Under the pieces are notes generated by a model. The model saw only the letters and a program-made list of their open reading frames with translations, did no database searches and was not told the origin of the DNA. This document shows, piece by piece, positions 14,968-56,967 of a stretch of DNA of 64,000 nucleotides. Origin of the DNA: Candidatus Spongiisociaceae bacterium (GTDB taxonomy: Bacteria; Actinomycetota; Acidimicrobiia; Spongiisociales; Spongiisociaceae); contig CBDCOH010000002.1 in NCBI GenBank assembly GCA_965219685.1, positions 3,104,001-3,168,000 of the forward strand, given 5' to 3'. Each line of letters opens with the position of its first letter. The first letter of the stretch is position 1. A program made the position numbers and the translations under genes.

Positions 14968-15156
14968 TCCTATGGCACGCCACCCCGTGAGGGCTACAAG
15001 GGGTCTCACCAACCGGCCGGGGTACGATCTATGTTCAGGAGTCGGGTTCCAGGAGCATCCAACTCACCGGCCAGCCAGCTGGACCACCATACCCTCCCAG
15101 AAACACCATAAGAAGTGGTGGACCCCCTTAGGAGCATCCGGGCGGTTCAGTTGTAG

Positions 15157-25496: not shown

Positions 25497-26024
25497 TGTA
25501 ACAACCCCGGAAAGGGTTTGTAATCCGTGCTGCCTACGTGTTGAAGTTGGTTCCGCTCTGCTCGGACCCCCGTCTGGCCCACGGGTGGGCAGTCAGCTCG
25601 GCTGCCGTCCCTAGCGACGTTGACCCCCTTTCGTGGACCCGCTTGTCCTTCTCCTCGTAGGCGGGATGGCGGAGGCGGTCATCGGCCTTGTGGATGGCTT
25701 GGCCGGCATCTGGCTGATACCGGTTTTGTTGATGGCGCACCCCCACGACTAGCCGGGTCCCCAGGTGCGGGAGGGGCTTATCTTGGAAGAGGTCAAGGTG
25801 TTCGACTGCGACCGGACGTTGGGCACCACAGCGGAGGAGCTGGCGCGCAGCGTGCAGTTCACCGTCGGTGTGCGAGTGGGCAGAGCCGGGTGTTGCGTAC
25901 CCGGGCCCGGTTCGAGACCTGGGCTGCCACGATCCGAATGGACGTGGATCCCGAACTGTTCGACCAGGAGCAGTTGTGAACCGCCCCGGGTTTGCCGGAG
26001 ACTCCGGGGGAACACTCATACTTA

Positions 26025-26181: not shown

Positions 26182-26231
26182 GATGCTTCTATGTTGTGCA
26201 AATCCGGTGTTGGGGGTGGGGAGAGGTTCGG

Positions 26232-27305
26232 TTAGCCGCTGCCGGCGGGGGGTCCTGTATGGGTGTTGTGGTTGGGTGGGTTCTCTAGGAGCCGGTAGAG
26301 GTGGCGGGCGATGTAGCGTTTGAGGCAGCGTCGGGCTTCTCGGGGGGTTTTGCCTTCGGCGGTTCGTTTAGCGATGTAGGCCTGGGTCTTGGGGCAGGTG
26401 CGGGTGCGGGTGATGACGATGGTGTGGAGGGCTTGGTTGAGGGTTCGGTCGCCGTGGCGGTTGAGCCGGTGGCGGCTGTTTTGTCCGGAGGACGCCTCGA
26501 GTGGTGCTACGCCGGCGAGGCGGGCGAAGGCTGCTTCGTTACGGAAGCGGCCCCGGTGTGACCAGGCGACATAGATCTGAGCGGCGGTGATGGGTCCGAC
26601 TCCGGGCTGGTCAACCAGGTGGGGAGCGACTGTTTCGACGAGTTCGGCGATGAGCGCGGTTAGTTCGGCTATCTCGGTGGTGAGAGTCTTGATACGTCGG
26701 GCGACAGATCGCATGGCTGTCTTGGTGGCGGTGTGCTCGGTGAGGGTCCCGCCTCGGAGCCGGAATCTGTGGCACTTGGCGACCAGGCCAGCGGTGGTGA
26801 GGCCCCCGAGTTGGTCCCGCAGACCAACCGGTGCGGTTACTACCAGGGCTTTCAACTCGTTGATCGCCGCCACCCTGGCTGTTTGGGCTCCTCGGCGGGT
26901 GGTTTCCAACACTCGCAGCGCTTCGCGGTTTCCCCGAGCGCGGGGAACTGGCAGCCGACCACGGCCTAGGACCTGGCGGGCGGCCCGCCGTGCGTCGAGG
27001 GCGTCAGTCTTGGCGCCGTCGCGGGTCGGGGTGGGATCCCCGAACTCCACCACCCACTCACCACGGGCAGAAAGGTAGCCGGCCACGCCAGCTCCATAGC
27101 TGCCGGTGCCTTCCACAGACCACACCCGGTCACCTACCCGGGTGTGGGTGCCTGCCCATTCCAGCAGACGGTCGTAACCCACCCGGGTGGCGCCAAACAC
27201 CCCAGATGCCTGCTCTCCGGTGGTGGCAGTGTCCACCACCGACGCGGTGACCCGGTCCCGGTCAGGATCGATCCCGATCACGTGCTCTACCATCGTGGCC
27301 AACAT
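26232..27305 (-). CDS. IS110 transposase (bridge recombinase), intact
   Basis: IGIDPD, VEGTGSYG, AKTDALDA, LAGVAPLEASSG, RLNRHGDR. Confidence 0.95.
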   Translation of the reverse strand: MLATMVEHVIGIDPDRDRVTASVVDTATTGEQASGVFGATRVGYDRLLEWAGTHTRVGDRVWSVEGTGSYGAGVAGYLSARGEWVVEFGDPTPTRDGAKTDALDARRAARQVLGRGRLPVPRARGNREALRVLETTRRGAQTARVAAINELKALVVTAPVGLRDQLGGLTTAGLVAKCHRFRLRGGTLTEHTATKTAMRSVARRIKTLTTEIAELTALIAELVETVAPHLVDQPGVGPITAAQIYVAWSHRGRFRNEAAFARLAGVAPLEASSGQNSRHRLNRHGDRTLNQALHTIVITRTRTCPKTQAYIAKRTAEGKTPREARRCLKRYIARHLYRLLENPPNHNTHTGPPAGSG

Positions 27306-27339
27306 AAGAAGACGCTCTCTTTCTTGTGCGAACTGGGCT

Positions 27340-27545
27340 ATCGCCTCCTAAGGCGCAGACCGTGACGGCAGGACTGTGATGGGTCACACCCCGGACGGTG
27401 GACAAGCTTCTGATCAGGCCAGCAACGGAACGCCCAGGCGGCGCAGCGGCGGTGTCGGACGCATCACGGTAAAGACACAGAGGTCAGAGTGTTCTCGGGT
27501 CACGACCCCGCCGCTGACGCCAATCCTGGCAACCTCAACGAGACC
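27340..27545 (-). ncRNA. Putative bridge RNA of IS110-B
   Basis: Guides at 27487-27495 and 27464-27470 match the flanking target; agaagc and tcacag match its own ends. Confidence 0.7.
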
Positions 27546-27640
27546 CACCCGATACTCACAGAGTGTTTTGTCCACCCGCTTCGGACCGGCGCTGCCGCAC
27601 AAATCCTATCCAACACAAGGAGAGGGGAGACACAGGGAGC

Positions 27641-28869
27641 ATGCCGGAACAAGACCAGGTCGATGTGTATGGAGGGGTTGATACCCATCGGGATATCCAC
27701 GTTGGAGCGGTGCTGGATCACACGGGTCGCCTACTGGGGTCAGAGGAGTTCAGGGCTGATGCGGCGGGATACGCGCAGCTGGAGGAGTGGCTCCGCTCCT
27801 GGGGGCAGCCGGTTCAGGTCGGTGTGGAAGGATGCGGTAGTTACGGCGCCGGCCTGGCTCGTTATCTGACCCGAGCCGACATCGAGGTGGTAGAAGTGAT
27901 GCGTCCCAACCGCCAGCTGCGTCGTCTCAGAGGCTGACACGGTCGACACCGAGGCTGCAGCCAGAGCTGCCCTCAGCGGAGATGCCACCGGGCGACCCAA
28001 AGGCGGGGACGGACCCGTAGAAGGGATAAGAATGCTTCGGATGGCTCGCCGTTCAGCGGTCAAAGCACGCACCCAGGCCGCCAACCAGATCCACGCCCTC
28101 CTCACAACCGCCCCTGAGCAGGTCAAACATCGGCTCCGGGACTCCAGTATCCAAGCGATGGTCAGAATCTGTGTCCGCTGGCGTCCCGGCGAAGCGCAGA
28201 CCACCACCGCGTACGCGAAAAAGGCGCTGCGGCACCTGGCCCGCCGATACCGGACCCTCGACACAGAAATAGCCGAACTCGACACCGACATCCGCCGTCT
28301 CTGCGCCAAGGCCAACCCGGCGCTCCTAGCCGCCTCCGGAGTGGGCCCCCACAGCGCTGCAGCACTCCTAGTCGCCGCCGGCGACAACCCCCAACGCATG
28401 AAATCCGAAGCGGTCCTTCGCGGCACTATGCGCCCTCAGCCCCGTCCAAGCATCATCGGGACAGATAGTTCGGCATCGGCTCAACCGAGGCGGCGACCGC
28501 CAAGCCAACAACGCTCTCTGGCGAATCGCCACCAACCGGATACGCACCGACCCCCGCACCATCGAATACACCCGCAGACGCAAAGCCGAAGGCAAAACCC
28601 GCCGCGAGATCATCCGCTGCCCCAAACGGCACATCGCCCGCGAGATCTACCACCTCCTAACCAAACCATCCCCAACACCCGACGGCAACGACCTCCGCCT
28701 CCAACGCCACCAAACCCGACTAACCCTCACCGACACCGCCGAACACCTCCAGGTCCACCCCACCCTCCTATCACTCCTCGAACGAGGCCTCCACCACAAC
28801 CACCAGCTCGCCACCCGCTACCAGAAATGGCTCACCGACCCGACCACAAAACCGATTTGCAAAACATAG
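27641..28869 (+). pseudogene. IS110-C transposase, frameshifted, with C-terminal XRE-type HTH
   Basis: GGVDTH, GVEGCGSYG, RHRLNRGGDRQAN, then LTLTDTAEHLQVHPTLLSLLERG. Confidence 0.85.
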
Positions 28870-28889
28870 ACACCCCAGGAGCGCAAATG

Positions 28890-30110
28890 TCAAGCTGCGG
28901 CTTGGTCGAGGGCGGTTCGGTGTGCCCATGCGGTGTGTTCGTTGTAGGGGGTTCGGTGTTTGAGGCAGCCGTGGAGGATGCCGACGAGTCGGTTGGCGAG
29001 GGCTCGTAGTGCTTGGTGGTGGAGGTCGTCGGCTGCTCTTCGTTGGTCGTAGAACGCTCGGGCGCCTGGGCTGTTGTTTAGGGAACAGAACGCCCACTGG
29101 TCGAGGGCGTCGTAGAGACGCCGGTTGCGTATGTGGCGGGCGACCACGGCGTGTTTGCGGCCTGACGCCACTGTGACGGGCGACGTGCCGGCGTAGTTTC
29201 TGCGAGACTTGGCGCTGGTGTAGCGTTGGGGGTCGTCCCCGAACTCACCAAGCGCCCGGGCGCCGAGGACATTGCCGAGTCCTGGCTGTGAGAGGTAGAT
29301 ACCGGCGTCCGGGTGCTCCTCAAAGCGGGTTTCCAGGGCTGCTTCGAGTTCTGCGATCTGGCGGTTCAGTTCCGCAACGACGCTCACCAGCGCCCCCACA
29401 GTGGCCCCGTGTGCATCGGCGACCGGGCCGGGTGCGGCGAGCTGGGGGGTGCGGAGGCCTTTCTGGATTCGGCGGGCAACCTTGTCGAGGTTGCGTCTCC
29501 GGCCGGCGGCTTTGAGCGCGGCTCGGATCTGGGGCAGGGTCAGGCGGGCACCCCGGGTGGGGCTGGTTGCCCGGCCGAGTACAGCCAGGGTGTCGCGATG
29601 GGCCAGGTCATCAAAGGTTTCCAGCGCTGCGGGATAGTATCCTCGGAGCGTGTTGCGCATCTGGTTGGTGTGACGCACCCGGGCCCATTTCAGGTTCTGA
29701 TGTGTTCTCGCCAGTGCTTTGATCCCGTCGGCTTCGGGGCTGTCACCGGCCACGCTACGATGGTTGTGACGGTCGGTTCGTACCAGATCGGCTAACACCT
29801 TGGCGTCGCCACGGTCTGACTTAGCTCCTCCCAGGTGATGCCGGTCCCGGTAACGGGACACCGCCTTGGGATTGATCGCATACACCTGATAGCCCGCCCC
29901 GATGAGGGCACCAACCCAGAGGCCACGGTCGGTTTCGATGCCTACCACCACCTCGGCCGGCTCCGATGCGTGCTCGGCGACCATCTCATGCAAGCCGCCA
30001 ATCCCCTTGATCCCTTCCCGGAAACGAGCGAAACCCAGGCGGGCTCCGTAGGCGTCCATCAGATACACATCGTGGTGGCCCTCAGCCCAGTCGTTACCAA
30101 CAAAGATCAT
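28890..30110 (-). CDS. IS110 transposase (IS900/IS116-like), intact
   Basis: VGNDWAEGHHD, GIETDRG, AKSDRGDA, YAGTSPVTVASG. Confidence 0.95.
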   Translation of the reverse strand: MIFVGNDWAEGHHDVYLMDAYGARLGFARFREGIKGIGGLHEMVAEHASEPAEVVVGIETDRGLWVGALIGAGYQVYAINPKAVSRYRDRHHLGGAKSDRGDAKVLADLVRTDRHNHRSVAGDSPEADGIKALARTHQNLKWARVRHTNQMRNTLRGYYPAALETFDDLAHRDTLAVLGRATSPTRGARLTLPQIRAALKAAGRRRNLDKVARRIQKGLRTPQLAAPGPVADAHGATVGALVSVVAELNRQIAELEAALETRFEEHPDAGIYLSQPGLGNVLGARALGEFGDDPQRYTSAKSRRNYAGTSPVTVASGRKHAVVARHIRNRRLYDALDQWAFCSLNNSPGARAFYDQRRAADDLHHQALRALANRLVGILHGCLKHRTPYNEHTAWAHRTALDQAAA

Positions 30111-30149
30111 CCTTCGCCTCCTTCTCCGGGGATCAACTCTCTCCTGAGC

Positions 30150-30335
30150 TGTCGAGAACGCCTGGCGGCGACCTAATGGATCAGTGCTCTATGGCACGCC
30201 ACCCCATGAGCGCTACAAGCGGTCTCACCAACTGGCCGGGGCACGATCTATGTTCAGGAATCAGGTTCCAGGAGCATCCAGTACTCACCGGCCAGCCAGC
30301 TCAACCACCACACCCTCCCAGAAACACCAGAAGAA
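30150..30335 (-). ncRNA. Bridge RNA of IS110-D
   Basis: Sense GGATGCTCCT (30270-30279) and AACATAG (30248-30254) match the target; TGGGGTG (30200-30206) and CCATTAG (30173-30179) match the donor junction. Confidence 0.8.
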
Positions 30336-30374
30336 GTGGTGGACCCCCATTAGGAGCATCCGGGGCGGTTCAGA

Positions 30375-32328
30375 CCCGAGTTTGGCGGGTTGGGGGGCTT
30401 TGTGGGGGTGGTTGGTTCGCTGACCTGGGGTTTTGTGGTGTAGAACACCGTTCCGGTGCGAGAATGTAGGGGCGACATATCGTTGATTAGATGGGCTGTT
30501 AGTGGTATTGTTCTGGCCATGTTCGTAAAGACGACCCGCCGTCGCAGGGGCGACAAGGTTTACGAGTATTTGTCTTTGGTGGAGTCTTTCCGCCAAGGGT
30601 CGAAGGTCGGTCACCGGACTCTTTTGCGGCTGGGGGAGGTGACCGCTTTGCGGGAGTCCGGCCAGCTGGAACGGATCGTGGCCGCGCTGGAGCGTCATCT
30701 ACGCCGCGAACGTGTCGATGTGGGGGCGTTGGAAGCTGAGGGGGCGCCTGGGGTGGGGGCGGTAGCGGCGGTGTGGGCGGTGTGGCAGCGGCTCGGCCTC
30801 GACGAGTGGTTCGCTCAGGTCGGCGCTAGACGGGGCGCGAAGGCCTTGGAGCATGCGGTATTCGCGATGGTGGCCAACCGGTTGGTGGCACCGTGCTCGA
30901 AGCGGCAACTGGTTGAGTGGGCCGGGGCGGATGTGGTCATGCCCGAGGGCTGGTCGGCTCCGTCGATTGATCAGTACTACCGGGCCCTGGACGCGGTCGC
31001 CGCTTCCAAGGACGACACGGAGACACATCTGTATTCGCGGTTGTGCGACCTGACGAACCTGGACCTGCGGCTGGTTTGCTACGACCTCACTTCCACATAT
31101 TTCGAGGGTTCGACCCGCCCGTCTGGGCGTTTCCCATCCCGGGCGTTCGGTTACTCGCGGGACCATCGTGCTGATCGGCCCCAGATAGTGATCGGCCTGC
31201 TGTGCACCTCCGACGGGATCCCGATCGCTCATCGGGTGTTCTCGGGCAACACCGCCGATGTCATCACCCTGGCGGCAGTGTTGAGCGACCTGGCCGAGAG
31301 GTTCGCGGTGGGCCGTATCTGTGTGGTCGCTGACAGGGGCCTGATGTCGGCAGCCAACATCGAAGTGGTCGCCGAAGCCGGGTTCGACCACATATTGGCC
31401 ACGAAACTGCGTCGTGACCGTATCAGCAACCAAGCCCTTGCGGCCATCGACGACGACACCGTCTGGGTCGACATAGACCAGTACCGTTGCCGCGCCGCTG
31501 ATATCAGCCTCGAGGACGGCACCCGGGCGGTTGTGGTCGAGTCCGACGGCCGCGCCCGCCGAGACGCCGCCCGCACAGCCCACATCATCGCCGCGGCGGA
31601 GGCAAAACTGCGGGCGCTGGAGCTGCGCGTCCGCGCCGGCAAGCTGAAGGACCCCGCCAAAATCGGGGCGGCCGCGCAGCGTATCCTCGCCTCCGGCGGC
31701 GCCGGACGGCTCTTCGACATCGAGATCGGAGCTGGACGGTTTCTCTACCACTACAACGAAGACACCCACACATACGAAGAACTCCTCGCCGGTCGCTACG
31801 TGCTAGCCACAAGCCTCACACCCGCCCAGGCCCCCACCGCCCAAGTCGTGGACCACTACCGCCAACTGCAAGCAGTCGAGACCCGCTTCAGGGTCCTCAA
31901 AGACTTCCTGAGGCTCCGCCCCGTCAGGCACTGGACCGAACAACGAGTCCGCGGCCACGTCGCGGTCTGCGTCTACGCCGCCCTAATCGAAACCCTCATC
32001 AACCACGCCCTCGCAGCAGCCGACATCCGCGATCCCGACCTCGGCGACCAGCACCTCACCGCCGCCCGAGCCCTGCGCGACCTCAACCGAATCCGCCGCC
32101 ACCAACTCACCGCCAACCGCCGCCGAATCCAGGTCACCAGCCGGCGCAGCCCCCTGCAAACCCGAATCCTCACCGCCATCGGAGCAGACACCCGCACCTG
32201 GGACAACCCCACCATCACCTAACCCCCTAACCCCACCACCGGCCCCCCACACCGCCCATGTAGTGGAAACACCCCACCGCCAAACCCCCTCTGACCAGGC
32301 AAAACGCAAAACACCCGCCAAATTCGGG
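30375..32328 (+). mobile_element. IS1634-family element copy 2 (same as copy 1, inverted), TSD TCAGA
   Basis: Same IRs and identical translation; tcaga at 30370-30374 and 32329-32333. Confidence 0.93.
30519..32222 (+). CDS. IS1634-family DDE transposase
   Basis: Identical to the 13120-14823 product. Confidence 0.93.
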   Translation: MFVKTTRRRRGDKVYEYLSLVESFRQGSKVGHRTLLRLGEVTALRESGQLERIVAALERHLRRERVDVGALEAEGAPGVGAVAAVWAVWQRLGLDEWFAQVGARRGAKALEHAVFAMVANRLVAPCSKRQLVEWAGADVVMPEGWSAPSIDQYYRALDAVAASKDDTETHLYSRLCDLTNLDLRLVCYDLTSTYFEGSTRPSGRFPSRAFGYSRDHRADRPQIVIGLLCTSDGIPIAHRVFSGNTADVITLAAVLSDLAERFAVGRICVVADRGLMSAANIEVVAEAGFDHILATKLRRDRISNQALAAIDDDTVWVDIDQYRCRAADISLEDGTRAVVVESDGRARRDAARTAHIIAAAEAKLRALELRVRAGKLKDPAKIGAAAQRILASGGAGRLFDIEIGAGRFLYHYNEDTHTYEELLAGRYVLATSLTPAQAPTAQVVDHYRQLQAVETRFRVLKDFLRLRPVRHWTEQRVRGHVAVCVYAALIETLINHALAAADIRDPDLGDQHLTAARALRDLNRIRRHQLTANRRRIQVTSRRSPLQTRILTAIGADTRTWDNPTIT

Positions 32329-32517: not shown

Positions 32518-35500
32518 CTAGTCGGCTGGCGGAGGCCCCGCACGGCCGGTGGCCTGCTCGGACCAGTCGCTGGAGGGATTGCCGGCGCCGTAGCGGGCGC
32601 GCACGATCACCTTGTATTCGGCGCCCGCTACGAGCCCGGTGACGGTGAGGCTGGTGTGGCGGGTGAACGCGTTGCGGGTCGGCCCGCCGAGCTTGCCGCC
32701 GAAGTCGCCGCCCACGAAGCTGCCGTCGACGGGCGCGATAGCCACTCGGTAGGGCTGGGTGGGCTCGGCGGGGTGCGGGTTCCAGCGGATCACTAGCTCG
32801 CCGGGGGCGTCGCCGGGCTCGACGGTTACGCCGGTGACCGGCGAGGATGCGCTCGGGGGGTCGTCGGAGGACTCGGGCTCGGATTCCGCCTGGCTGCGGG
32901 TGACTGTGAGCGCATAGGTCCGGGTCGTGTTGGCGTCCTCGGAAGTGACGGTCACTGTGATCGGGTTCTCGCCCACCTCGAGTTCGGCAGTCGCCGCTTC
33001 GGCTGTGACGGTGCCCGTTGCGGTCTGTACCGACACCGACGCGCCGAGGTGGTTTCTGGCGGCGGTCACCGTCACCGACTCGACGTCGTTGGCGACGCTG
33101 GCGGTGTACTCGATGGTGTCGGACGCGAAGGCCGGGGTCAACGCGACCACAGCGCCGTCGGGGTCTGTCAGCTCGAGGGCGCTCAGGGTCGCGTCGGGTG
33201 ACAGTTCCGCGGTCGCCGGCGACGCTGTCGGTTCTGTGCCGTTGATCGAGATCCTGAGCGCTTTGGAGCGGCCGCACGAGGTGATCGAACTCGAAGAGTC
33301 CCGCTGGTCCAAGCAGACGGCTTTGATCAGCCACCCCGGTGTGCTGACGCTGTCTTGGCCGTCGGCCAGGGTTGCGGCCAGGTCAAGCGAGCCGGCCAAG
33401 ACCTGTACCCTGACCAAGTAGGATGTGTCGGCGCTGAGCGCTATGGGGGATCCTTCGGGGGCTTCGAAGCGGGCTTCGCGACGCCTGGACAGCCCATTGG
33501 GTGCGGTTAGCGTCAAGGATTGGTCGCCCAGAGGGCTGTCAACCTTTTCGTAGATCCGGACGTCGAGTACTGCGTCGCTGCTGACGCGGTCGGGCTTGCC
33601 TAGCGTCACGCTGTCGATCAGCGCGCCTTTCTCGCCGGTGCGGAATCCCTGATAGATGATGGTGTCCTCGTTGTACCCGCCGACGTAGACCCAGACGTTC
33701 TTGGCCGGGTCCTGTTCCAGGTTGCTCACCAGCATCGTGCCGGTTTCGCTGTCGGGACGCGCGAACACGGCGGGCGTTTCGGCGCTGGCATGGTTGCTCT
33801 CGTCGCTGTGGCTGAACGCGTTGCGTGCTCTGATGAGGTAGAGGTAGGAGGTGTTTGGGGTGGTTTTCGTGTCGGTGTAGGTCGGGGCCGCGCTGGCGGT
33901 GTTGCTGGCGATCCGCTGGAAGTCGGGCGTAAGGGAGGCGGTGTAGGCGGTATAGGCGGTGTTGGCGCGCCAGACATGGTAGCCGGTCACCGCGGGGTCG
34001 CCCGGGTCGTCCCACGCGAGCGTGACCGTGCCGTCGTCGTGTGCGGTCGCGGTCAGGCCCTGGGGGGTTGCGGGCGGCGACAGATCAGCGGCCAGCACTT
34101 CGATCCCTTCGATCGAGACCCGCAGCGCTTCAGCGGACCCGCAGTCGGCGTAGCTGTCCGTCGCTCCTGCTGTGGCACGGCAGGCGTCGTCGAGTCGCCA
34201 GCGGGGGGCGCTGTCGGCGTCCTCGCCGTCGGAGTGGGTGGCCGACAGGCCCACAGTGCCCGAGACGCGGTCGACTTTCACCCAGTAGGACGTGTTCGCG
34301 TGGAGACGCGCGGTGGCGTCGTCTGCGACGGCGAAGGTCGCGTCCTGCCCTGAGCTCAGCGTGGCCGACAGCGACAGCGCAGCAAGCTGGGCCGCTGGTT
34401 GGCCTTCCGCGTCCTGGGCGTGTATGGCCACGCTGAGCTCGGCGTCGGTGCTGAGCTCGCCGACATCGGCCAGTGTCACGCCGCCGAGCAGCACGTCGTG
34501 GCTGCCTGTCGTGAAGCCCTGCAGCAGGCTCGACGGCTCCCCGTCGCCGCCCACCGACACGGCCAGGGTCTGCTCGGGATCCTGGCCGGCGTTGGCGACC
34601 AGGATCGTGCCGTCGCGTCTGGTCAGCACCATGACGCGGTTGCTGCTGGCGCTCAGGCCGTTGGCGTTGCGCGCTTTGACGTGATAGGCGTACACCGTGC
34701 CCGGTTTCGCCCGGGTGTCCGCGAACGACGCGGCGGCGGTTTCGGTGTCGTCCGTGAGCACGTAGCTGGTGCCCGCAAGATCCTCGCCGGGGCGGTGGCG
34801 CAGTATCTGGTGGCCGGTGATCGACTGGTCTGCGGGGTCGTCCCACACGAGCGACACGGTGCCGTCTTCGAGCGCGGCCGCGGTGAGGCCCTGCGGCGCG
34901 GCGGGGGGCAGCGTGAGATCGGCGTCGTTGTTGAGGATCGTGCCGGTCGCGGCCGCGACCGGGCCCAGGCGGGCGTTGTGGGACAACACGCCGAGCGTCA
35001 GCGTGAACGTCTCGTCGGCTTCATAGGCGGTGTCGTCGCCGGTGGGCACGCTGATCGTGGCCGCGGTCTCGCCCGCTGGGATCGTCAGCGTGCCCGCCGA
35101 CACCGGGGAGTAGTCGGGGCCGTCTGGTGCGTCCGGGTCTGCTGTCGCGGTGCCGTCGCTGGTGCTGTAGCGCACGGTGACGGCGTCTTGGGTCGCATGG
35201 CTCAGGGTGACGGCGAACTCGACGGCGGAGCCTTCGGCTGCGGCGGACCGTCCGTCGGACAGGCTCAGAAGCGGCAGCGGGGCAGTCCCCTCGTAGCCGT
35301 TGATCGAAAGTCTCAGCGTCCCGGAGAACGCGCAGTCGATGTGCTGCGCGCCGTCCTCCAGCAGGCATGTGTCGTCCATCAGCCAGCCCGGGGCGCTCGC
35401 AGCGTCCTCAGCGTCGGACACGGTGGCCGACAGCTCGAAGATGTCGGCGCCGCCTCCGATCCTCACGAAGTAGTGGGTGCTCGCGCTCAGTTCGACCGCA

Positions 35501-38500
35501 CGGCCGCCTGCGGCGGCGAACCTGGGCCGCTGGTTGTGGACCAGCCTGCGGGGGGCGGCGAAGGTGTGCAGCAACTCGCCGGGTGTTCCGTCCTTGGCAG
35601 CTGCCAGTATTTCCACGCTGATCCACGCGTCCGAGTTCACGCCTTCGACGCCGAACAGTGTGATGCTCTGCACTGCTGTGTCCCGACTTCCGGTCGTGAA
35701 TCCCTGCAGATATGTCGTCTCGACCGCACCTACCGACAAGGTGGCAAGCGGACGCTGCATCGCGTTGGTCAGCACCGTCGTCTCGTTGGGTCCGCTCCGC
35801 ACCGCAGCGCTTTCGCTCGGCCCGCTAGGTCCGTCGCCGTTGCGGGCCCTGACGCGGTACTCGTACTCGGTCCACGCGTCGACGCCGGTGTCCACGAACG
35901 CGGTCGCGGCGCTGCCGGTGTCGTTCACCAGCGTCTCGAACGCATCATCGGGGTCCTCCGCGGGTCTGCGACGCAGGATCTGGTAGCCGGTCACGGTCGG
36001 GTCGGCCGGGTCGTCCCAGCTCAAAGCAATCGCGCCATCCGCAGTCTCGGCCGCGGCGAGTCCCCGCGGCGCGGCCGGCGGCTGCGCTCCTGCGGTCTCG
36101 TTGCTGACAGCCAGGCCGCTGAACGGCTGGGCCGGCAGACCGAGCGCGCCGGCCCGGACGTAGTCGGGCCCTGAGGGCTGCTGGTAGCTGACCCGCACGC
36201 TCTGGCCCGGCTCTACAGGCGAGGCCAGTGCCAGCACGACCTCGCTGCCGGCGACGGTGGCGTCTTCGACAGGTCGGTCGCTGCCGTCGGCAGCGACCGT
36301 GAACGCGGTCGGGGGCAGCGTGACCGACGGATCCAACATCTCTGCCCAGGTGAGGACCATTTCGTCCCGGTCGACGGTCGCCTGGTGCAGCCTCACATAG
36401 GCCATGGCCACCGGGGCGGTGGGATCGCTGGTAACTGTCTCGTCGACGCCGCGGTCGTCGGCGAAGCTCACTCGCACCGCGACGGCATGGCCCGCGTCCG
36501 CGGCGTTCGGCGTGTACGCGGGACCGGTCGCGCCCTCGATGTCGGTGTGGCCGGTCTCGGAGTCGTCGTCTGCGCGGATCCATTGGTAGGCGAACACGGC
36601 GTTGTCCATTCCGCCGGGGTCGTAAATGCTCGACGTGTCCGCTCGCAGCGTCTCCCCGGCCTGGGCGATGCCGCGGATCGTCGGCTTGCCCGTCGCGGGG
36701 CGGTTCGGCCGCGGCGTGACGGTCGGTGTGGGATCGCTGGTCAGCGACTCTTCGTTGCCGCGGTCGTCGGCGAAGCTCACTCGCACCGCGACGGTATGGC
36801 CCTCGTCGGTGTCGGTCAGCGTGTAGTCGGCGCCGGTCGCGTCCGCGATGTCGACTGCGCCGGTCTCGGAGTCGCCGTCGATGTGGACCCATTGATAGTC
36901 GAAGGTCGCCTTCTTCAGCCCGTCCGCGTCGGAGATCGCCTTGGTGTTCGCCCGCAGCGTGTCCCCCACCCGGGCCTTGCCGAGTATCGCCGTGCCCGAC
37001 CACCAGGCAGGACTGTTGACCCCATTGACCGACCGGAGTCCCACGTCGGAGCCGGCGAAGGTGTCGCTGGTCAGCGACTCGGCGTAGCCGCCGCGGTCGA
37101 CGAACGAGACGCGGACGCTGATCGAGCGTGCGGTGTAGGCTTCGGTCCAGATGTAGGTGGGCAGGGTCGCGCCGTCGATCTCGGTCTCGACGCCGCCGTC
37201 TGAGGCGATCCACTGGTAGCGGAAATGGACGCTGTCGAGTCCGTCGGCGTCGTCGATGCCTGCGGTGTCTGCCCACAGCGTGGCGCCGGTCCGGGCCTTG
37301 CCGCCGATCACGGGCGCGCCTGAAGCCGGCCGATTCGCCGCCCTAGGCCGTCTGCCCGAGGCGTACTGGCTGGTCGCGTTCATGCTCTCGATCGGTGACC
37401 AGGCCGAGACGCCCTGGTCGTTCGAAGCCCGGACACGGAACCAGAGCGTGGAGTCCGGGTCCAGACCGCTGATGATCGCGCCCTCGCCGTAGAAGGCGAT
37501 CTCGACGCCGTCGCCGGGCAGGTCAAGCCAGCCGCCACGCCAGACCTGCACGTCGTAGGAGAAGGCGCCCGACACCGCGTCCCAGGAGAGGTCGACCCCG
37601 CCGACGAACACCGCCGTGGCGTCAGGACGGCCAGGCACCTCCGGCGCGGTCAGCGAACGAACAGACGACCTCTGGGAATTACGGGACTTCGGTGCCAGCG
37701 GCTGCTGGTCGTCACGAGACCTCTCCTCCGCCTGAACCGGCACCTGTAGGCCGAGGCTGGTCGTGAGCGGCTCGTTGTCGGCGGTGCACAATGCGCCGCC
37801 GTCTTTGCCGCAGCTTCCGCCGCCCATGAGCATGATCGAGACCGCGGCCGCGCCGTCGGGCCGGATGGTCAGTTCCCAGAGATCCAGGCGGCCGTCCACC
37901 TGGGCCACGTCGCTCAGCGTGCCGCCTGTCAGCAGCAGCCGCTCGCGCAGGCCCTCGGCTGTGGTCTGCACGTCGTGGCTGAACTCGATCCGGACACGGA
38001 ACTCGGTTTCGCCGTCGTGCGACCCGGGCGCCTCGCTGAAGCTCGCCGTCAGTTCGCCGCTCGCCGATTCCCCGAGAACGCTGTTGCCGATGCTGTTGCC
38101 GATGCTGTTACCTCCGTCGGGCAGCGCGTAGGCGTCGATCCTGCCAATGGGGTTGGTCACCCAGATCGTCTCGTTGTCCGACCAGATACCGCCCGGGGGC
38201 ATGGAGCTGACATTGCGCAGCTTGATGTCAAGCAAAGGGCGGCGCTCGCCCGTGTCCAGAACGTAGGCCCGCAGCCAGTCGCGGCTGGCTGCCCACATCG
38301 TCGTGCCGTCCGACCAAATGCCGTACGCGGGGAAGTGGCCGAAGCGATCAGACTCCGCGATCGTGCGGGTGGCCACATCCAGGGTGTAAATCCCGCGAGG
38401 TTGCTGCCCGCTCAACAAGACACCGCTCAACCAGATAGTCGAACCGTCCGACCAGATGCCATTCACGTGCAGACCCCTCAGGTTGTAGTCCATCGCGGCC

Positions 38501-40912
38501 CTCCGCGCGAACGGTGTGTTGAACGTCCGGTCCGATGTCACCGGCTGGTTCTGATTATTGATCGACGTGATCTCCTGCCATTCGCATTCGCCGGCCGTGG
38601 TTGAGCCACGCTCGTAAGCCTCGAGCCGGCGTTGGGTGCCGTTGGCGACCCAGATCGTCGTGTCGTCGCCCCACATCTGGGTCAAGTCCGCGTTGCCGGA
38701 TCCGTCGCCCAACGCGGTCGGGCTCAAGTGGCAGCCGTAGTTGAAGCGGTAGTCGAGGTCGGTTGCCGTGGCCGGCAGGTGACGTTCGATCTTGCCCTGC
38801 TGCAGCGCCGACAGCTTCAGCGGATGAATCCCGAAGTGCGGAGGGTCTACGACCCAGACAATGTCGGAGTCGGCGTCGCCCCAGATCCCGGTCGGCTGCC
38901 AGAAGTCTGCGAGAACCGCGATGTCCGCGTAGCCCGGCTCGGCGACGATGACATTGCCGTCGTCGCCGAATCGCAAGCGGACACTGCCTTCAGCCCAGAG
39001 ATAGGCTGACAGCTTCTCGGCGGGTAGCAGGCTGGAACCGACCGCCGGCGCGATCCTGCGCCGGTGATAGTTGACCGGTTCGGTGTCGTCCACGTCGACG
39101 ACCAGCGTGCTCTCGATCTGGTTGAACCGCTCGTCCGTGCTGGACGCCGTATGGACCACAACGTAGGACCCGTTGGTCCGGTCCGCGTCGGGACGGGCCG
39201 ACGCATAATTCTGTTGCTCACGGTTCCAGTTCTGCGGAGTGAACGTGTACTCAAAATCGGTGAGGTCTAGGTTCACGGTAGCGTCTGGGAGGGTGATTCC
39301 CAGATAGGAAACCGTGATCGTTACGTCGTCTGTCGGTTGCTTGTCCAGCTTGATCGTGTATCCCGCGGTGTCTCGGCCGTTGTCCACAATATGCAGATGC
39401 TGCTCGGAGAGCAGAATGCGGCCCGGCTTGGTCAGCCGGTAGATTCCCAGCGTGTAGTCTGTGGTGTCACCGTTCTCGGCCGTGACCCGCAGTTTGATCG
39501 TGTTGGTCTGGCCTTCCACCAGATCGAACTGGAACCGCCTCGCGTCGGGGTCCGCGTCGCTAAGTTCGTTGCCGTCGCCGTCCAGATACTGGAGCCGGGC
39601 GTGTATGTCGCTCGTCTCAGCCGCGAAAGACACGAATGTGCTGCCGAACGGAACCGTTGCCGAGTAAGAAAGATCGTTGGCGTCGAACCCGCCGATATCT
39701 ACCGGATCGCCGTCCTTCTCGTTCACCGCCAAGCTGCTCAGCGTGGCGACATCCGACGCCTCCCGTGCTATCCCGCGGATTTCCATCCTAACAGGCGTAG
39801 ATGAATTAACGACCCAGTTACTATGAACGATGTTATAAGAATAGAAGTCGTTCGCCAGAGACCAACCCGACTCACCACTCTCGCCTCGCTCGTCAACCAA
39901 TCGGACTTCCGGCCTCGTGTCAATTGGGACAATATTCTCGTTGATTGTGATCCAATAGACCGTGTTCGCCGCCAGTCTCACCGGGTCCGCAGGGGCGGTG
40001 AACACATTGACGCTGTTCGACGTCAGCGAGGACGGATTGGTCAGCGTCGCCAGCACTCTGTCGGGAACGTTGTTGTTGCTCCCGTCGAGCCTGCTGTTCC
40101 TGATCATTACTCTCGTATTCTTGCCGCTCGTGTCTCCCAGTTCGATCAGCACTGCGGAAAGCGTGTACAGATCGGAACCTGTCGTGAAACGTTGAGCGAC
40201 AATATGTGTTGAATTGCTGCGTGTGCCCGGGGTGAGCAGATTGCTGACTAGCTTGGTGTCGTCCCCTATTTCTGTTCCTCTAACCCGCATCGCGAAAGAG
40301 CTAGTGCTGGTTGTATCCCACGCGTCTGCTTCTTGAGCCTTGAAAATGTGACTGTCGCCTATGCTCCAGCCGGCTGCGCCCGTTTCGTCATCCGCACCGA
40401 ATAGTGCCACCTGGGGGCGGTCTGCTGTAGCCACTCCTTCGTTGACCACAACCCAATATGTCTTGTCCGGTTCGAGAGTGACATCAGTCTGAGCCGTAAA
40501 CCGGTTGACACTGTCGCTCGACAGAGACGAAGGACTTGCGAATACGGCCACATCGGTGCCTGGGACGCCAGCATTGTCTTCCTTCAGCTTGACCGAACCA
40601 GTCTTGTCCTGGGCTGTGTTGAACCTGACTTCGATCTCTGAGACCCGGTACCCCGCAGGATGCGCTCCAGTGCGGATGGTCTGGGCCACAACATTGTTGG
40701 AGACAACGGTGCTGGTTCTGATGTTGCCCACAAGCTCGGGAAAGGAAGCAACCTGCGCCCCCAGCGGGTAAGCACCGAATGTGGCAAAGCCCGCCAGCAG
40801 CAGCACCGCCAGACTCACCTTGGCGAGCAGACGGACGCGCCCGCCACCCGCGGGCGACACAGCCGACCCGGCCCCCTCCCCGGAAGGCACCGACCATGAC
40901 ATCTGTCTCGAC
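32518..40912 (-). CDS. Giant secreted surface protein (~2.8 kaa): repeated Q.F.TG beta-sandwich domains, cadherin-like sandwich, GIWSDG propeller, Ig/FN3, SwmB-like and Calx-beta domains
   Basis: Signal peptide LLAKVSLAVLLLAGFATFGAYPLGAQ; start placed at MSRQMSW rather than 41067 (approximate). Confidence 0.85.
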
Positions 40913-40948
40913 ATCCCCACCTTCAGCACGTTGATCAGAATCACGCTT

Positions 40949-41098
40949 GCTCGATACACGAAGCAGGCCAGCGAACTGTAACACCCATAGCACGCTGCAA
41001 CCCGGCCAACAACATGTGTATCCGTGACCGTAGCCTTTAAATCGACGTGTAGAAAAGTGTCGGTCACGGATTCTTCAACGTGGAGCCCCTCTGTGGTG
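40949..41098 (-). promoter_or_regulatory. Conserved ~150-bp upstream element (copy 2): -10 at 40975-40980, box at 41014-41028
   Basis: Homologous to 144-298. Confidence 0.65.
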
Positions 41099-44067: not shown

Positions 44068-44091
44068 CTTGACAAACACTCAGGAGCATCC
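44068..44091 (+). mobile_element. Orphan IS110-C-like right end
   Basis: ttgacaaacactcaggagcatc. Confidence 0.45.
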
Positions 44092-54167: not shown

Positions 54168-55408
<1,241 letters not shown>

Positions 55409-56894: not shown

Positions 56895-56967
56895 TGGGCC
56901 CGGAGGGAATCGAACCCTCGACCTTCGGATTAAAAGTCCGCTGCTCTGCCGACTGAGCTACAGGCCC
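56895..56967 (-). tRNA. tRNA-Lys (UUU), CCA not encoded; probable integration site
   Basis: GGGCCTGTAGCTCAGTCGGCAGAGC...CTTTTAA...GGTTCGATTCC...GGGCCCA. Confidence 0.97.

Follow-up and report, generated by a model that had tools for sequence, protein, structure and literature searches.

The question raised by this locus is how one insertion sequence came to lie within the last few nucleotides (nt) of another, and whether the RNA it encodes spells out that position. The stretch analysed (the window: 64,000 nt of contig CBDCOH010000002.1 from Candidatus Spongiisociaceae bacterium, assembly GCA_965219685.1) contains an intact element of the IS110 group, designated D, inserted close to the right terminus of a separate IS110-type element, designated C. 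Coordinates are positions in the window, and motifs of D were read on the minus strand. We conclude, with a probability of about 0.9, that D is an autonomous IS110-group insertion sequence which works like IS621 and inserts into copies of C. This reading is based on the anatomy of the element, a fold supported by covariation, the covariation of guides with flanks, a true empty site and the recurrence of the target.

Limits of element D and its recombinase

The ends of D were set by alignment to four relatives in the same genome (83-84% nucleotide identity), to 71 relatives elsewhere and to uninterrupted paralogues of the host element C. The relatives were drawn from 80 loci encoding relatives of the recombinase (64-85% identity) in addition to the four same-genome copies; a left end reading CT-AATGG was placed for 77 of 85 elements and a right end was located for 71. 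Right ends of relatives were searched for using GGG(G/A)TGT-CT, and the right-end motif is therefore a search criterion and not a finding. The following features were defined:

28870-30351, minus strand: body of IS110-group element D, 1,482 bp excluding the core copies (alignment to relatives and to uninterrupted paralogues of host C)
30352-30353, minus strand: CT core copy at the left junction of D, AG on the plus strand (77 of 77 relatives start CT-AATGG)
28868-28869, minus strand: CT core copy at the right junction of D, AG on the plus strand (71 of 71 relatives with a located right end)
28890-30110, minus strand: recombinase gene, 406 amino acids, intact (Pfam, NCBIfam and profile matches)

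CT was present at both junctions in D and in all relatives for which both ends were found, with no longer duplication. On the sense strand of D the junctions read ..CCGGATGCTC-CT-AATGGGGG.. on the left and ..CCTGGGGTGT-CT-ATGTTTTGCAA on the right. The non-coding left end is 241 nt long compared to 20 nt for the right end (left ends of relatives range from 224 to 270 nt), and D thereby fits the long left end and short right end described as typical of the IS110 group (PMC11208160). The layout of the IS1111 group, with the RNA in a long right end and subterminal inverted repeats of 7-17 bp, was not found in D, inverted repeats not having been specifically searched for.

The predicted recombinase matched both expected Pfam domains, DEDD_Tnp_IS110 (PF01548; 3.4e-32, residues 4-160) and the C-terminal Tnp domain (PF02371; 3.5e-09, residues 274-354), and scored 181.7 bits (cut-off 140) against the NCBIfam model NF033542, 'IS110 family RNA-guided transposase'. 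A family profile made from 14 relatives matched the solved structures of ISCro4 (PDB 9t56; 2.3e-13) and IS621 (PDB 8wt6; 8.6e-13). Residues D7, E59, D99, D102, S316 and G317 were invariant in 14 of 14 aligned relatives, and the D-A-x-D-A block and S316-G317 were aligned to their counterparts in ISCro4 (E-S-G). These residues fit the active site of IS621, described as DEDD plus Ser-Gly (PMC11208158), and on the basis of that description we infer that S316-G317 is the equivalent of S241/G242 of IS621. With an open frame, both domains and all catalytic residues present, the 406-residue recombinase is intact; the system is complete, as an earlier reading of this locus (the original prediction) had claimed.

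A match to the Rfam family Ms_AS-4, an actinobacterial antisense small RNA, was recorded at 29208-29289 on the plus strand (80.7 bits, gathering score 50), antisense within the recombinase gene; it probably reflects no more than homology to an IS110 transposase gene from which that small RNA was described.

Target guides of D and the empty site

The sequence GGATGCTCCT in the left end of D (30279-30270) is identical over 10 of 10 positions to the left flank CCGGATGCTC plus the core CT while, at a distance of 15 nt, AACATAG (30254-30248) is the complement of the core plus the right flank (CT-ATGTT) over 7 of 7 positions. Three other copies of C (L011, L012 and L013; 95-96% identical) are uninterrupted at this point and read ..TTGCAAAACATAGGAGCATCCGG.., so that the empty site is seen and not merely deduced. 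All motifs quoted in the original prediction were found in place, including TGGGGTG at 30206-30200 and CCATTAG at 30179-30173 (see below).

C lies on the plus strand, with its left end starting at approximately 26013, and D is inserted in the opposite orientation to it, approximately 6-7 nt from its right terminus. The parts of C on either side of D are as follows:

28857-28867, plus strand: TTGCAA hexamer of C (28857-28862) with AACAT, cut off from the terminus of C (known from intact copies)
30354-30360, plus strand: final 6-7 nt of C, GAGCAT(C), left isolated on the right-hand side of D (comparison with empty palindrome copies)

The terminus of C was placed at ..GGAGCAT(C) by comparison with copies of a repetitive extragenic palindromic (REP)-like sequence that carry no C, which bears out the wording 'right end of C' used in the original prediction; intact copies of C read TTGCAAAACATAGGAGCAT(C) at the terminus. 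The 15-bp site of D consists of the last 13-14 nt of C and 1-2 nt of the palindrome flank. Read as its reverse complement, the programmed site (GG)ATGCTC-CT-ATGT(T) is the final 13-14 nt of C, and the predicted target sequence of D is GGATGCTCCTATGTT. A longer C, running approximately 20 nt past the site of D, was considered and rejected: the shared sequence CCGGGGCGGTTCA is flank, namely the right half of a palindrome with many C-free copies, one of which carries the very left flank of L011.

Two instances of the pattern GGATGCTCCT-N10-20-AACATAG were found in the window, one in D and the other in a D-like copy that has decayed, whereas none of 100 shuffles produced it. In the 4.4-Mb genome the 15-mer target was found three times (0.003 expected), on each occasion at the right end of a copy of C, and the inner 12-mer target eight times; in seven of these cases the site belongs to the right end either of C or of a C-like element (L015-L018, which share 70-73% identity with C). 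These figures exclude chance. Coincidence, or a mis-join of repeats in the assembly, is an explanation we regard as scarcely credible. The region is indeed repeat-dense, and the short-read contigs of one sample are fragmented here, with none spanning the whole stretch; against this, a 72-nt contig (30328-30399) crosses the left junction of D in two runs of one sample, and an identical junction sequence was found in four other genomes. The sequencing check drew on contigs from four runs of one sample (among the runs listed, part of the stretch is present in 20 and at least half of its words in three, all from one sample; no RNA run was listed). One joint in these contigs leaves out 1,484 nt between 28866 and 30351, its shorter side being just 21 letters long, and was attributed to the three paralogous uninterrupted C ends and not to excision. 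Run X4 was without cover over much of D. No joint of right end to left end, as in a circle, was found among the joints listed in the one-sample contigs. None of these contig results has a bearing on activity.

A half-site GGATGCTC-CT-GAGTG was also noted in the window at 44082-44091 on the minus strand, at a C-like right-end variant TTGACAAACACTCAGGAGCATCC; its left half is perfect, its right half is not, and it is unoccupied.

Fold of the bridge RNA

A consensus fold of 43 pairs was obtained with RNAalifold from 62 non-redundant left ends. It comprises a closing helix, a 5' hairpin, a target unit (14-bp stem, internal loop and 4-bp hairpin) and a donor unit (stem, internal loop and hairpin), and the guides lie in the two internal loops:

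30161-30349, minus strand: bridge RNA region with closing helix, 5' hairpin, target stem-loop and donor stem-loop (62-sequence consensus)
30270-30280, minus strand: 5' side of the target loop, U plus GGAUGCUCCU; left target guide, in the sense of the left target plus core (unpaired in the consensus)
30245-30256, minus strand: 3' side of the target loop with AACAUAG (30254-30248); right target guide, complementary to the core plus right target (flank match)
30198-30210, minus strand: left donor guide CUCAUGGGGUGGC, which forms the 5' side of the donor loop (TGGGGTG against the right end CCTGGGGTGT-CT, 7/7)
30171-30183, minus strand: right donor guide UGAUCCAUUAGGU, which forms the 3' side of the donor loop (CCATTAG complementary to CT-AATGG, 7/7)

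When the pairs were tested across the alignment, 98.0% of cells were paired, compared to 32-49% with the partners slid, and there were 172 cells with double changes compared to 52 +/- 7 in shuffles; 16 of the 43 pairs showed double changes, and the observed covariation score was reached by none of 500 shuffles. Pairs with double changes were found in helices 2, 3, 4, 5 and 6, while the inner helices of the donor unit (7 and 8) never vary and are neither supported nor contradicted. The donor loop is nearly invariant across the family, as are the element ends, and the donor guides match the joined ends of D itself, 7/7 on each side, as had been predicted. No Rfam family reached its gathering score in the left end of D, and the only two matches at E <= 10, both chance matches to long non-coding RNAs, were far below it; this result is uninformative, as Rfam appears to have no bridge-RNA family.

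Guides follow flanks across relatives

In five aligned left ends from the same genome, essentially only the two guide blocks are variable. Guides were compared with flanks in 59 distinct sets. Of the 77 rows, 14 had been set aside because the right end was missing, the contig was short or the guide was of odd length, and four more as duplicates. In the left target, cognate guides and flanks matched on average at 5.39 of 8 positions compared to 2.61 for non-cognate pairs; for the right target the corresponding means were 4.08 and 2.13 of 5. The summed guide-flank score was 559, while the best of 10,000 flank shuffles, with relatives treated as independent, gave 342.

Matching rates in the left target rose from the outside inwards (0.22, 0.37, 0.66, 0.69, 0.66, 0.90, 0.93 and 0.95 for positions -8 to -1), and those in the right target fell from 1.00 through 0.95, 0.90 and 0.78 to 0.46 (positions +1 to +5). 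Since positions -7 and -8 match at chance level (0.37 and 0.22), the working left guide is approximately 6 nt plus the core and not 10 nt, and the working site is approximately 6+2+4-5 bp. The original prediction had given a left guide of 10/10: all ten positions do match in D, and it is the working length that proved shorter across the family. On the 8+5 variable positions D is the single best matched of the 59 sets (13/13).

Two relatives illustrate the pattern. In L107 the guide GAATGCTCCT and the flank TAATGCTC-CT carry the identical change, and in L109 the guide GGATGCTCCT is found with the flank TGATGCTC-CT; both carry AACATAG.

Recurrence of the target

A second copy of the D lineage was found in the window:

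14970-15129, minus strand: D', decayed left end of the D lineage, 92% identical, with the same two guides and with flank GAGCATC plus a palindrome half

The guides of D' lie at 15060-15051 and 15035-15029, its flank extends to 15149, and it is truncated at 14969/14970 by an IS4-like element. There are two copies of the latter, one from 30373 to approximately 32300 (plus strand) and one ending at 14969 (minus strand), with their first 21 nt identical; an open reading frame (ORF) of 588 amino acids with Pfam domain DDE_Tnp_1 is located at 30456-32222. The one copy adjoins the palindrome beside D and the other cuts D'.

Beyond the window, a search of 301 genomes of the order found the occupied junction ATGCTC-CT-AATGGGG in five, the source genome included, while a reversed control gave 0, and relatives of the D lineage in four other genomes are located at the same kind of site. 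The other D-lineage copies that were found (D' in the window; L029/L104, L107 and L109 elsewhere) therefore share this kind of flank; surroundings of unrelated sequence, which the original prediction had named as grounds for its refutation, were not seen. L029 is flanked on its left by a C-like right end and on its right by a C-like left end, an arrangement shared by L104; the body of the host appears to have been deleted between two look-alike sites, and the left guide of L029 (GTGAGCTCCT) fully matches neither flank. At L009 (G000:C2:3481221-3481243) a 22-nt remnant CT-AATGGGGGTCCACCACTT-CT has flanks that are paralogs of the ones surrounding copy o4; an imprecise excision, from a CT within the left end to the core of the right end, may have left it as a footprint.

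Host element C and a second intruder

The insertion point of C-family elements is a constant position within a REP-like palindrome, TGAACCGCCCCGG..CTCCGGGG(A/T)A(A/C)-CCGGGGCGGTTCA, of which numerous empty copies are found genome-wide. The copy of C in the window was already dead, having received a second IS110 insertion (B) in its left end and having its frame broken at 27937. Elsewhere the frame of C is open in L011 and shifted in L012 and L013. The proposal that the window copy is 5'-truncated was rejected, as it is interrupted by B instead.

25977-26012 and 30360-30372: REP-like palindrome in the window (genome scan)
approximately 26182-27560, minus strand: third IS110 element B, related to C (ORF 26232-27305, both Pfam domains)

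B is inserted between ..CCCCACACCCT and GAGTGTTTTG.. of C, and a B-like right end adjoins a C-like left end at the equivalent point near 3052398 of G000:C2; B may thus also be specialised on left ends of the C family. A search for k-mers shared between ends gave just 7-mers of the chance sort for B. For C it gave a same-sense 9-mer, CATAGGAGC, in the left end identical to the right end, and an 8-mer complementary to ATCCGGGG; the core could be fixed from neither.

The 9-mer bears on a further explanation, namely that the recombinase and RNA of C drew D in as cargo through a half-match at the donor end of C. The insertion boundary does fall inside the terminal donor region of C, and an expansion of IS110 loci of this kind has been described, in which matches on one side only to the donor ends of the surrounding element are over-represented at internal insertion boundaries (10.64898/2026.08.14.744561). 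Capture of this kind does not, however, predict that the target loop of D should spell both of its flanks, nor that in 59 relatives, at unrelated sites, the guides should track the flanks of the element that carries them; the junctions are exactly those, at a CT core, that mark the D family, and the host copy has no working recombinase gene, an open copy being found elsewhere. We therefore consider capture by C very unlikely, and insertion of D by its own machinery is preferred.

The original prediction had also held that D should abolish the junction promoter and donor site of C. That TTGCAA is separated from the terminus is a plain fact of the sequence, and the joined ends of C would form a promoter of the form TTGCAA-N17-CATACT, which, if so, was destroyed by D. 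The claim for the donor site is weaker: the occupied junction reads CCATT-AG-GAGCAT compared to AACAT-AG-GAGCAT when empty, and the last 9-10 nt of C (T-AG-GAGCAT(C)) are unchanged because the end of D begins with A-T like the sequence it displaced; this copy of C was dead in any case. As these nucleotides survive, a C::D composite might still be moved by C machinery in trans.

Proposed mechanism and present state of D

Transcription, circle formation, RNA-protein binding and present-day activity of D are things we infer only by analogy. By comparison with IS621, D would be excised as a circle, whose joined ends would create a TTGACA-N17-TCTAAT promoter across the CT core:

28870-28901, minus strand: right end of D with TTGACA; joined form TTGACA-N17-TCTAAT (computed join of its own two ends)

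Computed joins gave TTGACA (69) or TTGACG (2), a spacer of 16-18 nt and TCTAAT in 71 of 71 elements. The junction promoter would drive a bridge RNA of approximately 190 nt from the left end, followed by the recombinase gene. In this RNA the donor loop would read the joined ends of D, UGGGGUG having the sense of the right end and CCAUUAG being complementary to the left end, while the target loop would read the insertion site through GGAUGCUCCU (sense of left target plus core) and AACAUAG (complement of the core and right target). Strand exchange at the CT core by the DEDD/Ser recombinase would follow. Re-creation of a promoter across the joined ends is described for IS110 circles, and integrated elements are expected to be near-silent (PMC11208160).

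Several observations weigh against this interpretation. A single-sequence search of the PDB with the recombinase gave no matches at E <= 0.001, the protein being too distant from IS621, and a scan for sigma-70-like sites across 28700-30600 in the integrated state found none, including ahead of the RNA. The relatives are kin and the statistics treat them as independent, so that the significance of the shuffles is inflated, and two of the ten left matches of D may be luck. The left donor guide has one mismatch (G against T) past TGGGGTG, common to the closest relatives. Fold z-scores are weak (-1.70 for the whole left end, -0.88 for 30150-30335) and, when the RNA of D is folded alone, AUG/CAU and UC/GA pair inside the target loop, five left-guide bases with five right-guide bases. 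The original prediction had named burial of the guides in stems as a point against itself; the guides are unpaired in the 62-sequence consensus but partly paired in this single-sequence fold, and the guide-guide pairing is peculiar to the target sequence of D. Full-length D is present once in the genome, and the three perfect targets (3/3) and five further 12-mer targets (5/5) in the genome are all empty.

The last of these points are also those expected if D was inserted once by the bridge mechanism and is now immobile here, the match being a fossil record. To them may be added that no promoter-like site lies ahead of the RNA in the integrated state, that the nearest relatives in the same genome are only 83-84% identical, that D' is decayed and truncated, and that the sister copies o2 and o3 (see below) are frameshifted. 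The recombinase frame is nevertheless open with every catalytic residue present, and both guide pairs, both ends and the halves of the junction promoter are intact; near-silence until excision is normal for IS110 elements (PMC11208160), and rare circles would be invisible in contigs. A silent relic is a real possibility, which we would place rather short of even odds. The programming of the D bridge RNA for the right end of C, as originally predicted, is carried by the anatomy, the covarying fold, the covariation of guides with flanks and the homology to IS621 and ISCro4.

Sister lineage and a possible targeting hierarchy

A sister lineage, represented by o2 and o3 (L002 and L003; G000:C2:3082039-3089651, outside the window), carries the guides CCAAGCTCCT and TTGATAG. 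These two copies are frameshifted, inverted and 4.6 kb apart. Matches to the flanks of each copy are poor; taken together, the left flank of o3 and the right flank of o2 make up the left end of the C-like element L015, one half each, an arrangement explained by one insertion followed by inversion through recombination between copies. The restored site, CAAAGCTC-CT-ATCAG, falls where the C-like left end, in ..CAT/GAT-AG-GAGCTTTG.., repeats a 9-mer of the right end of C. This stretch is probably the DNA for the donor guide of C itself. In another genome, L026 and L027 are inserted into C-like left ends at this very position.

Since the gene for a bridge RNA has to contain a near-duplicate of the end of its element, each IS110 element offers two look-alike landing sites. 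We tentatively propose, as an idea somewhat below even odds, a hierarchy of IS110 elements in which C targets the REP-like palindrome and is itself targeted by D, by the sister lineage and by B, with the D clade specialised on C-family elements at two related sites per host. D would be programmed against the terminal donor half-site of C (..CAT-AG-GAGCAT) and the sister lineage (o2/o3 and, in another genome, L026 and L027) against the left-end repeat. If this is true, a few guide changes would shift the parasite between two look-alike sites, and the outcome would be RNA-guided antagonism of one insertion sequence towards another or, alternatively, a safe-harbour strategy in which hitch-hiking is possible. 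It would also mean that evolution can program RNA-guided transposons against one another, and that the redundancy of guide and donor in bridge RNAs creates predictable secondary targets, which bears on the ecology of the mobilome and on engineered off-targets.

Three other features of the window are unrelated to D: an ALIL pseudoknot (Rfam, 101.6 bits) at 55014-55130 and a tRNA at 56895-56967, both on the minus strand, and a mechanical ORF of 2,849 amino acids at 32518-41067 (minus strand).

Comparison with known systems

Bridge (or seek) RNAs of the IS110/IS1111 elements have been established since 2024 (PMC11208160, PMC11187229), and REP, attC and Tn21-end targets are already on record (PMC11208160, PMC11187229). 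Repeated insertion into occupied IS110 loci via half-matches to resident donor ends has also been described (10.64898/2026.08.14.744561). In the main texts and abstracts searched, nothing was found on an IS110-group element whose programmed target is a second IS110 element, and transposon ends as a class of target were found only for the IS1111 group (Tn21 ends).

Elements of the IS1111 group reportedly target the ends of Tn21 specifically, that is, the end of another transposable element. D resembles them in this choice of target; unlike D, they have their RNA in the right end and subterminal inverted repeats, and their host is a transposon of the Tn3 family and not an IS110 element.

ISPpu9, ISPpu10, ISPa11 and other REP-targeting IS110/IS1111 elements (PMC12288879, 10.64898/2026.03.19.712850, PMC11187229) provide a parallel for the position of C at the REP-like palindrome. 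The likeness is that of C and not of D, whose target exists only where C exists.

By profile, the best solved relative of the D recombinase is the ISCro4 transposase (PDB 9t56); the two align in register at the D..E..D-A-x-D-A block and at the S-G loop, the comparison being of the protein only. Another close system is IS621 of Escherichia coli (PMC11208160, PMC11208158). D is like it in the DEDD RuvC-like domain and the Tnp domain with Ser-Gly, in the long left-end RNA with a 5' hairpin followed by the target loop and then the donor loop, and in the CT core, the promoter across the joined ends and guides that covary with natural flanks; loop order, strandedness and lengths are as printed for IS621 (PMC11208160), the 3' side being complementary to the core plus right half. 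D differs in that its recombinase is distant (406 residues compared to a solved chain of 328), that its ends differ (CT-AATGGG.. and ..GGGGTGT-CT), that in nature it targets a site at the end of a different IS110 element instead of a REP sequence, and that it is known from sequence alone.

The mechanism is known, and D is a new, unusually legible member of the family with a noteworthy class of target. As a natural specimen it is clean, with guides, target, donor ends, empty site, junction promoter and intact recombinase all readable, and its 70-odd relatives with differing guides form a ready-made orthogonal set for bridge recombinases of high-GC actinobacteria. Less ordinary is the target, which is the donor end of another IS110 element in D and, in the sister lineage, a look-alike stretch inside what is probably the RNA gene of such an element.

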